From positions 2,203 to 66,202 of the forward strand of contig DATKQI010000279.1 in NCBI GenBank assembly GCA_035532755.1: a DNA stretch of 64,000 bases, in the 5' to 3' direction. Under the pieces are notes generated by a model. The model was given only the letters and a program-made list of their open reading frames with translations, did not search any database and was not told where the DNA came from. Of this stretch, positions 45,250-46,600 are shown one piece after another (position 1 is the first letter of the stretch; each line of letters begins with the position of its first letter). The position numbers and the translations under genes are program-made. Source of the DNA: Acetobacteraceae bacterium. Its GTDB lineage: Bacteria > Pseudomonadota > Alphaproteobacteria > Acetobacterales > Acetobacteraceae.

Positions 45250-46600
45250 ACGGCTATGAAAGAATGATCAAAACGGTTTTTGGAGAAAAAAGATTATAAT
45301 CCATAAATAGATACTAATTTGGTAACAAAACACCACCTGGAAAAGAAAATTATTGTAACTTGCAATCCAGGGTGGTAATTTACGTTTTGTTATTCCAACG
45401 GAGGATGAGCGTGCGAATTTTGCTCGTAGAAGATGATCCGCTGGCCGCTCAAGCCATCACCCTCGCTTTAAAGAGTTGTCATGCAATCGTTGATCAGTGT
45501 GATCTTGGGCAGGATGCGGTAAATATAGCTAAACGTTACGACTATGATGTAATATTAGTTGATTTAATGCTATCTGATATCGACGGATACGAGGTTATAA
45601 AAAAGATCAGGTCAGAAAAAATTATAACTCCGATTATTATTCTATCCGGATTGACAAGAACTCAATCAAAAATTAAAGGATTAAATGTAGGTGCCGATGA
45701 TTTTATAAATAAACCATTTGATAAAGAAGAGCTAATAGCCAGATTACAAGCAATTGTGCGAAGAAGCAAAGGTTACAGCGAACCTCATATAAAAATAGGA
45801 AACTTAGTTATAAATCTGCAAAACCAAGAAGTGTCTGTAAATGGGAATATAATAAATCTCACATTAAAGGAATATTTAATACTTGAATTAATGTGTTTGA
45901 GAAAGGGAATTGTTGTCAGTAAAGAAGCGTTTCTGAATAATCTATACGGCGGTATCGATGAGCCAGATCTAAAAATTATTGATGTATTTATCTGCAAGAT
46001 CCGAAAAAAAATGCTTTTGAATAATTGCCCAAATATCATAACAACCATATGGGGTCGTGGTTATATGATAAAAGATAATATAAAAGATAATAAAGCTTCA
46101 GAAGTTGATTCACATAAAATGCTGCCTGTAAATGATAGATCTCCAGAATGTTGGGCGGCTGGCTGATGCGCAGGCGCATGAATTTGTAGGGTCGCAGAAC
46201 TGATCGAAAGAAATCTTGAGCGGGTTGGGTCAGAAATGATTCTCTCGCTGGCATGGATGGAGTGGGGCAGTGTCGGTGTGAAATCTGGAGCATCGTCCGT
46301 GTGGCGTTGCGGCCGGCAATGCCTCGCTTCGTAGCGCCGTGTCGCCAATGATGTGCATTTGACGATCGTTCGCCGTAAAGCGCGAATGTTCATGTATACA
46401 TTTGTAGTTTTCGCTCCAGAGCACGTGTCAATGTTCCAACTGTGCTGGTCATCACATAATACATCGCGCCAATCGTCAGAAATATCGCAAAATTCTGAAA
46501 TGTTGAACTGATCACCATCTGTGCCGATAGAAACAATTCCTGTACAGTCACCAATGATACCAAGGCAGAATTCTTCGTCAGCGCAACGAATTCATTGCCC
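45250..46600. other. compositional island: AT-rich segment in an otherwise roughly 65-70% G+C window
   Basis: My hand count of 45541-45600 gives 18/60 G+C. The left edge is about 45250. The right edge, about 46600, lies inside the permease CDS. No integrase, transposase or flanking direct repeats were seen. Confidence 0.8.
45405..46166 (+). CDS. OmpR/PhoB-class response regulator closely resembling CtrA (orphan, no adjacent kinase)
   Basis: The receiver domain has an LLVEDD acidic pocket, the phospho-acceptor context [13 protein letters not shown], and KPF. The winged helix has CtrA-like strings [35 protein letters not shown] and WGRGY. The ATG at 45405 follows ACGGAGG. Confidence 0.85.
   Translation: [253 protein letters not shown]

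Follow-up and report, generated by a model that had tools for sequence, protein, structure and literature searches.

Closest described systems

CtrA is the central regulator of motility, cell cycle and gene-transfer-agent production in alphaproteobacteria, and its gene is generally regarded as part of the vertically inherited core, present once per genome. The present analysis concerns a ctrA-like response-regulator gene that lies in a 0.9-kb AT-rich island of a GC-rich, 64-kb stretch of DNA from a metagenome-assembled soil Acetobacteraceae bacterium (the whole stretch analysed is called the window below). This locus is best filed as a divergent CtrA xenolog in a minimal AT-rich island. Indeed, the reading that we prefer, with a probability of about 0.6, is that the island represents a horizontally acquired, diverged and functional CtrA xenolog in the form of a minimal promoter-plus-gene unit.

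Genes for CtrA are normally orphan, and the protein receives its phosphate from CckA via ChpT (PMC8116508, PMC9430884). The CtrA of Rhodospirillales is dispensable and governs motility, and the location of ctrA is poorly conserved in this order (PMC8116508). The nearest counterparts of the window gene are the canonical CtrAs of Acetobacteraceae, namely those of Rhodovastum (P0327), Limobrevibacterium (P0260) and metagenome-assembled genomes (MAGs; P0005, P0323). The window protein resembles them in (i) its architecture and length, (ii) its acidic pocket and conserved Lys, (iii) its LYGG, RKK and WGRGYM signatures and (iv) its sequence, with 59-60% identity without gaps over 222 aa (59% in the case of Rhodovastum atsumiense). 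Unlike the window gene, the canonical gene has a G+C content of ~64% (P0005 gene) and adjoins fliI/fliJ, and its product scores 377-383 bits with the CtrA model of NCBIfam.

Accessory CtrA copies are also encoded on plasmids, namely pB of Methylobacterium sp. FF17, pJE1 of Sphingomonas sp. JE1 and pMspAR02a of Mesorhizobium sp. AR02. They resemble the window gene in being orphan and in having no kinase and, if that gene was acquired horizontally, in their association with mobile DNA. However, their G+C content (0.56-0.60) matches that of the replicon, and they are plasmid-borne whereas the window gene forms a single-gene island on the chromosome. They belong to the Rhizobiales/Sphingomonadales type, share 50-54% identity with the window protein and carry the name CtrA from the annotation pipeline. 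On pB (L095, 4160-6702), the CtrA copy is located 1.3 kb from a MucR-family gene; the other small plasmids are L096 and L098.

A further parallel is SsrB of Salmonella SPI-2 (PMC4769171), which, like the window gene as it is read here, is a foreign AT-rich OmpR-family regulator in a genome of higher G+C content. SsrB differs in having a kinase and a large island and in not being a copy of a resident master regulator, whereas the window gene stands alone and is a homologue of its lineage's own global regulator; by analogy with SsrB, it may be subject to an interplay with a silencer. According to the review PMC7710501, MucR binds AT-rich DNA, is the proposed xenogeneic silencer of alphaproteobacteria and takes part in the regulation of Caulobacter ctrA. 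The literature search turned up no paper on ctrA copies that are AT-rich or were acquired horizontally.

The AT-rich island and its gene

The island and its gene comprise the following features (evidence in parentheses).

45250..46149, no strand: AT-rich island made up of the upstream region and nearly the whole coding sequence (CDS), ~30-34% G+C (50-nt G+C profile)
45250..45410, + strand: AT-rich upstream region with TATAAT (45295-45300) and GGAGG (45400-45404) (sequence, promoter scan, motif searches)
45411..46166, + strand: ctrA-like response-regulator gene, stop codon 46164-46166 (list of open reading frames (ORFs), identity to P0001 / HUZ64752.1, Pfam, NCBIfam)
45417..45746, + strand: receiver domain, aa 5-114 in ATG numbering (PF00072)
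45561-45563, + strand: codon of the phospho-acceptor Asp53 in ATG numbering, which is Asp51 in GTG numbering (alignment with CtrAs)
45852..46067, + strand: OmpR/PhoB-type winged-helix DNA-binding domain, aa 150-221 (PF00486)
45972-46013, + strand: recognition helix, identical to the CtrA consensus apart from one L to I and one L to M change

The original prediction, made from the sequence of this stretch, of an AT-rich single-gene island between GC-rich flanks was confirmed by measurement. Positions 45250-46166 have a G+C content of 0.342 (34.2%), with 0.345 for the gene alone and ~30% in the core, against 0.677 (67.7%) in the rest of the window. Compared with other segments of 917 nt (mean 0.679, sd 0.029, minimum 0.587), the island has a z-score of -11.4, and the G+C content remains at 0.20-0.40 per 50 nt throughout 45550-46149. 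The left edge is an abrupt step, from 0.74 at 45200-45249 to 0.30 at 45250-45299, and the right edge, at ~46149/46150 (0.34 to 0.60), falls inside the last six codons of the gene. AT enrichment is not limited to the island, since it is also found in the 3' end of the neighbouring permease gene (46390-46570).

The G+C content at third codon positions (GC3) of the ctrA-like gene is 0.28. Its codon adaptation index (CAI), the calculation of which had been proposed as a check, is 0.209 and lies far outside the values of 25 reference ORFs of the window (0.61-0.75). Its codons include 9 TTA and 16 ATA, two triplets with frequencies of 0.4 and 1.2 per thousand, respectively, in the reference ORFs. 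The locus thus combines deviant composition and codon usage with sharp boundaries, as is characteristic of a horizontally acquired island, and a foreign origin is well supported by composition and context. Relative to a canonical gene, four-fold degenerate sites have changed from C to A nine times and to T seven times, and from G to A ten times and to T five times. These similar numbers of A and T exclude a recent, transition-only hypermutation and point to a long AT equilibrium. Hypermutation of a native duplicate, whether by deaminase or by a process like repeat-induced point mutation, was rejected because the transversions C to A and G to T are of similar frequency to the transitions C to T and G to A, respectively.

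No stop codon interrupts the frame between 45405 and its end at 46166. The gene, first read as a 253-aa regulator of the OmpR class, is indeed an intact gene of this class, but it probably starts at GTG 45411 and encodes 251 aa. The GGAGG (45400-45404) that had been taken as a good Shine-Dalgarno sequence for the ATG at 45405 is present, but it directly abuts this ATG (spacer 0) and fits GTG 45411, from which it is separated by 6 nt. The shorter protein is likelier because of this spacing, because its N-terminus then reads MRILLVEDD as in every CtrA homologue, and because the public record (P0001) uses the GTG start (251 aa).

The TATAAT hexamer pointed out earlier is present, but the promoter scan pairs no -35 element with it, and promoter-like sites are no commoner than in shuffled sequences. 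Motif searches detected no CtrA box in 45250-45410 and no GANTC within 300 nt upstream of the gene. Neither a full TTAA-N7-TTAA nor TTAACCAT occurs in the 64-kb window, and matches with one mismatch all lie inside the AT-rich gene body. The locus therefore offers no tie to autoregulation or to CcrM control. Searches for Rfam RNAs, promoters and terminators gave nothing above chance. In 45236-45286, just upstream of TATAAT, six differences, one of them a 1-nt indel, set the window apart from three other assemblies of the locus (L001, L002, L083), which represents strain variation in the putative promoter.

Family assignment and conserved residues

Both components of an OmpR/PhoB-class response regulator, the receiver and the winged helix, are encoded (Response_reg, PF00072, 95.3 bits, aa 5-114; Trans_reg_C, PF00486, 60.9 bits, aa 150-221; ATG numbering), and the protein aligns over its full length with DrrD (1KGS, E = 1.4e-40). 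The best NCBIfam model is that of CtrA (NF045991, 313.7 bits), clearly ahead of the next OmpR-class family, PhoP (155.5 bits). This score and the near-unchanged recognition helix agree with the original description of a CtrA-like rather than a generic OmpR/PhoB regulator. Control proteins scored 377-383 bits (Acetobacteraceae CtrAs), 427 (S. meliloti), 424 (Azospirillum) and 349-353 (a group of AT-rich relatives described below as family B), for a curated whole-protein cutoff of 350 bits. By its sequence, the protein is clearly of CtrA descent, yet it lies below the equivalog threshold.

The conserved recognition helix and the DNA-binding signatures of CtrA are both found in the protein. In the alignment with CtrAs, residues D10, D11, D53, S81 and K103 (ATG numbering) show no variation. 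The acidic pocket, the phospho-acceptor Asp and the conserved Lys are all intact, as are the motifs LYGG.DEP and WGRGYM. Of the 75 columns without variation in 123 canonical CtrAs, 68 are conserved in the window protein, and the seven changes are all conservative (L52V, P57S, T172S, H179N, E188D, L199I, L203M). With its open frame and kept invariant residues, the gene is intact, as had been stated. Relative to the Acetobacteraceae-type consensus, 92 of 224 positions carry replacements, of which 58 are toward AT-richer and 13 toward GC-richer codons, so that much of the divergence can be put down to compositional drive. No other OmpR-class match was detected within the 64-kb window.

Relatives and search for a donor

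Apart from copies of the protein itself, a search of 5.8 billion clustered proteins returned nothing more than 60% identical. The best 120 matches are all CtrA-type (53-60% identical), many of them labelled CtrA; among relatives with a name, the nearest are proteins of Acetobacteraceae (from Rhodovastum atsumiense, from Limobrevibacterium gyesilva and from MAGs). Low-GC CtrAs from metagenomes are no closer (56-57%), and those of Azospirillum, Rhizobiales, Rhodobacterales and Sphingomonadales share 53-57%. For comparison, one study reports a mean identity of 74% ± 11 among representative CtrAs (PMC9437464). In neighbour-joining (NJ) trees, the window protein stands on a long basal branch, a placement that probably reflects long-branch attraction.

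The low-GC alphaproteobacterial donor that had been proposed was not recovered, since the best matches reach only ~60% and the nearest named ones are GC-rich Acetobacteraceae. Similarly, the searches of phage and plasmid collections gave no match that would sustain the suggested phage or plasmid source: their DNA showed no match beyond fragments of 70-100 nt, and the best plasmid protein match (57%) is on Azospirillum chromids. Scans of IMG/VR by protein, profile and DNA pattern likewise gave no donor, and the AT-codon pattern is absent from that collection. A DNA-pattern scan of metagenomes for an AT-codon version of DEPxxKIIDVF yielded 120 loci, among which only the island's own copy in a JGI assembly shows a large contrast between gene and flanks; the remaining loci simply belong to low-GC organisms. 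Contigs classed as viral in IMG/VR (L106-L110) encode full-length CtrA relatives that are 46-52% identical to the window protein. One of these contigs, L108 (IMGVR_UViG_3300008264_000032), encodes its CtrA relative at 6465-7133 and is AT-rich throughout (32%).

Occurrence in other assemblies and selection

The protein is identical to HUZ64752.1 of the metagenome-assembled 'Acetobacteraceae bacterium'. The same gene with the same neighbours is present in three further assemblies, ERZ27256801 and ERZ27256814 from ENA and 3300031672 from JGI (L001, L002, L083), on contigs that match the window over 6-15 kb with 99.5-99.8% identity; the four assemblies carrying the island come from three sources. 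The acquisition had been described as recent, a view that is not borne out, as the island is shared by four strain-level assemblies, one of them with a diverged allele, and no island-free close relative was found in the databases searched. The diverged allele is distinguished by one feature.

45731..45965, + strand: 10 substitutions of the L002 allele, all synonymous (population alignment; Nei-Gojobori Sd = 10, Nd = 0)

The L002 protein is 100% identical to the window protein, and its substitutions are balanced in direction (5 toward GC and 5 toward AT). The ratio of 10 synonymous to 0 non-synonymous changes indicates that the protein is under purifying selection; assuming that about one quarter of random changes are synonymous, such an outcome would arise by chance with an estimated probability of ~1e-6. 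The divergence of L002 reaches ~4% over these 235 nt against ~0.4% in the flanks, and this clustering suggests a recombination tract whose source was an allele of greater divergence. Beyond the four assemblies, the gene is probably in circulation in a wider population.

AT-rich ctrA-like genes of family B

Three matches of the first protein search (P0013, P0036 and P0040) stood out by their amino-acid composition. The corresponding gene, B1, has 36.7% G+C and a GC3 of 0.27 in flanks of 0.6-0.7, with sharp steps, and its AT-rich tract coincides with a short promoter region plus the CDS. A search with P0013 revealed two further lineages, both AT-rich with GC-richer flanks, represented by P0242 (90% amino-acid and 80% nucleotide identity to P0013) and P0243 (82% and 72.5%). 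Together these genes are referred to as family B.

L092, L093, L100-L105 (B1), L263 (B2) and L264 (B3): AT-rich ctrA-like genes of family B on GC-rich soil-metagenome contigs

In family B as a whole, the gene has a G+C content of 0.36-0.41 and a GC3 of 0.26-0.34, in flanks of 0.5-0.7 G+C. B1-B3 share a promoter, TTGACA...GGTAGTAT. On L100, the longest contig, the B1 gene is flanked by an IS3-family transposase on one side and an IS630-type fragment on the other; compared with other samples, the IS3 copy is a polymorphic insertion. Between B1 and B2, synonymous sites are saturated (pS 0.72) and dN/dS is 0.023, which marks strong purifying selection.

Like the window gene, family B consists of a single intact AT-rich gene with a short AT-rich promoter and GC-rich flanks, under purifying selection, and it derives from the CtrA type of Acetobacteraceae. 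Unlike the window gene, it has a different promoter and different flanks, B1 stands among insertion sequence (IS) elements, and the proteins are closer to canonical CtrAs, with 71-77% identity to those of Acetobacteraceae and 349-353 bits on NF045991, that is, at the cutoff. The window protein shares 59% identity with family B, and the only exclusively shared residues are four AT-driven ones. A sister relationship between the window gene and family B was unsupported by NJ trees (bootstrap 3%), by exclusive residues and by diagnostic positions. Furthermore, the window gene (A), B1 and B3 share no flanks. The pattern of an AT-rich ctrA-like island is rare but not unique, given that only the island's own copy stood out in the DEPxxKIIDVF scan and that family B exists besides. 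This recurrence is the most interesting new element of the analysis.

Genomic context

The neighbours of the ctrA-like gene are those given in the original prediction, an arginase/agmatinase-family gene upstream and a convergent amino-acid ABC permease gene downstream. The reported lack of a partner kinase or mobility gene also holds, with no kinase, Hpt, integrase or transposase gene within ~10 kb of the island. Flanking repeats are only short and at chance level, no tRNA is called closer than 6 kb (the next at 13 kb), and no MucR gene is encoded in the window.

Permease relatives with 79-84% identity have other neighbours. In the nearest ones (82-84%), the pair of substrate-binding protein (SBP) and permease genes is followed by a HutF-like amidohydrolase gene (L085, 1288-2652; L089, 2069-3433). 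HutF is absent from the window, where the island and a convergent arginase-family gene come next instead and no remnant of hutF or of the relatives' intergenic DNA was found, and the island (45164-46390 compared) therefore marks a break in synteny. All four assemblies of the species carry the island, and no close relative without it was present in the collections searched. A scan of GTDB genomes with the arginase-family protein returned only matches with ≤71% identity and no shared context.

The canonical ctrA adjoins fliI/fliJ at the P0005 locus, in Azospirillum and in S. meliloti. The usual context, divergent from fliI-fliJ, is not found for the window gene. It is not strictly defining, because the location of ctrA is poorly conserved in Rhodospirillales (PMC8116508). 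In one Rhodospirillales MAG (L008, 6913-7620), a canonical ctrA encoding a protein 52% identical to that of the window lies ~2.4 kb from an arginase-family homologue, a proximity that is probably a coincidence.

46390..46570, - strand: 3' end of the convergent amino-acid ABC permease gene, with AT-shifted synonymous sites (GC3 compared with three relatives)

Over its last ~180 nt, the permease gene has a GC3 of 0.55, 0.45 and 0.30 per 20 codons, whereas three relatives with nearly the same amino acids have 0.70-0.95 over the same stretch; the shift includes several changes of leucine codons from CTN to TTG. About 200 nt of ~58% G+C separate this patch from the island. This makes a single contiguous donor fragment spanning the permease 3' end, as in a homology-anchored insertion, unlikely.

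Origin of the gene and alternative explanations

Under the reading that we prefer, the gene would have spent a long period under AT-biased mutation, either in a low-GC lineage that has yet to be sampled or in a pool of mobile elements. The CtrA of this donor would descend from the Acetobacteraceae type. The gene would then have been inserted between the arginase-family gene and the amino-acid ABC transporter operon of an Acetobacteraceae host with 68% G+C, where purifying selection would keep it. The foreign gene of the original prediction thus retains its low-GC history, as seen in AT-equilibrium codons, the 58:13 bias of replacements and the context outside fliI/fliJ, but its recency and its donor find no support. 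The break in synteny relative to the nearest relatives, the accessory CtrA copies on plasmids and the AT-rich genes of family B also speak for acquisition.

Several observations weigh against this acquisition. (i) Neither the protein search, nor tblastn and blastn against phages and plasmids, nor IMG/VR provided a donor or vehicle. (ii) The mobility hallmarks of a genomic island, namely an integrase or transposase, a tRNA target and flanking repeats, were not found. (iii) No empty site was detected in any relative by the database searches. (iv) The AT-shifted end of the native permease gene is not explained by a simple insertion. (v) B1 and B2 are synonymously saturated and yet both AT-rich in GC-rich flanks, so that either several independent transfers or an active maintenance of AT-richness is needed. 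(vi) The attachment of the long branch of the window protein is not settled by the NJ trees. (vii) The protein, at 313.7 bits, misses the cutoff of NF045991. (viii) As the window contains no CtrA box, nothing in it ties the gene to the CtrA regulon.

Among the alternatives, the one that has survived best, which we still regard as unlikely, is that the gene is native and vertically inherited, possibly as the lineage's only ctrA, and that its AT-richness is actively maintained, for instance so that a master regulator can be controlled through a silencer or rare codons. The closest named relatives do belong to the host's own family, the gene is present in all four assemblies and ctrA was found in only 72-82% of the Rhodospirillales genomes analysed (PMC8116508), but the canonical ctrA of Acetobacteraceae is GC-rich (64% in the P0005 gene) and the canonical fliI/fliJ context is missing. 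The L002 substitutions, five in each direction, reveal no trend toward amelioration; likewise, the saturated family B genes still have a GC3 of ~0.27 in GC-rich flanks, the AT-rich tract comprises promoter plus CDS in both the window gene and family B, and the AT shift extends into the neighbouring permease gene. Against vertical inheritance, the window gene, B1 and B3 are without common flanks, the 82-84% identical permease relatives have another neighbour and no such gene there, and the sharp step from 0.74 to 0.30 is typical of an insertion.

A related proposal, equally tentative, is that the AT-rich ctrA-like genes of the window and of B1-B3 form an undescribed class of minimal promoter-plus-gene copies of the master regulator, enduring for long in GC-rich genomes, in which AT-richness would be kept as a regulatory device (a MucR-type silencer and/or TTA/ATA codons) that makes each of them a conditional alternative CtrA. 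Local maintenance of AT-richness is conceivable on account of the unameliorated B1-B2 pair, the balanced L002 changes and the AT-shifted permease end.

Somewhat less likely than native descent is that the gene is relic cargo of a plasmid, phage or transposon and encodes a CtrA-like protein that served the element and not the host, for example as a decoy or competitor that hijacks or blunts the host's CtrA regulon. Annotated CtrA copies do exist on small plasmids, one of them 1.3 kb from a MucR-family gene, but these have normal G+C contents; full-length CtrA relatives (46-52%) occur on IMG/VR contigs and alphaproteobacterial phages use host CtrA sites (PMC9437464), but the island has no DNA similarity to phages or plasmids and no protein match there above 57%. 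In family B, the B1 gene stands between a polymorphic IS3 transposase and a fragment of IS630 type. Around the window gene, the nearest ~10 kb are free of mobility genes, and purifying selection acts on this gene in a chromosomal context without any element.

Less probable again is a neofunctionalised regulator, derived from CtrA but acting outside the CckA-ChpT-CtrA circuit and CtrA boxes. The score of 313.7 bits (cutoff 350, canonical family members 377-383), the identity of ≤60% against a CtrA mean of 74% ± 11 (PMC9437464), the seven changed invariant residues, including Pro57 to Ser beside the phospho-Asp loop, and the orphan position in a non-canonical context would all fit this explanation. 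However, the recognition helix, LYGG.DEP and WGRGY are kept, the changes at invariant sites are all conservative, and most of the divergence follows AT pressure and not a functional shift.

That the feature is a chimera of assembly or binning, or else a pseudogene in decay, as might be suspected in a metagenome-assembled genome with such an extreme compositional contrast, is highly improbable: the former was ruled out because the same gene, neighbours and junctions stand on contigs from other samples (L001, L002, L083, hence four independent assemblies: the NCBI MAG, two from ENA and one from JGI), and the latter by the open frame, the 10:0 synonymous substitutions and the 68/75 invariant residues kept.

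Possible function and significance

If the gene is an acquired xenolog, its receiver would be phosphorylated on Asp51 (GTG numbering), most plausibly by CckA-ChpT of the host, since CtrA genes normally have no adjacent kinase. The near-unchanged recognition helix is predicted to bind CtrA-type sites (TTAA-N7-TTAA), and the protein could serve the motility and cell-cycle regulon as a second CtrA or as a substitute for the first. As CtrA is non-essential in Rhodospirillales, an extra or replacement copy is plausible without lethality. Expression is probably low or conditional, as would be expected from the extreme load of rare codons and from AT-rich DNA of the kind bound by MucR.

By combining a near-unchanged helix with a foreign composition and a changed receiver surface, a selectively kept xenolog would offer a natural experiment on how horizontal transfer can rewire or duplicate a master regulator. 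If the gene were the only ctrA of its genome, this would amount to the xenologous replacement of a global regulator. The anatomy of family B suggests a repeatable route toward, or a selective reason for, AT-rich CtrA copies in GC-rich soil bacteria. Furthermore, the island is a clean candidate for studying MucR-type xenogeneic silencing and codon-limited expression.

Other features of the window

Two tRNA-Gly genes were called by ARAGORN at 52156-52247 (CCC) and 59118-59216 (ACC). With unusual lengths of 92 and 99 nt, these overlong calls may be false positives or interrupted genes. In addition, the region 23001-25000 of the window has a moderately low G+C content (0.59-0.62) and a strongly negative AT skew (-0.27 to -0.39).

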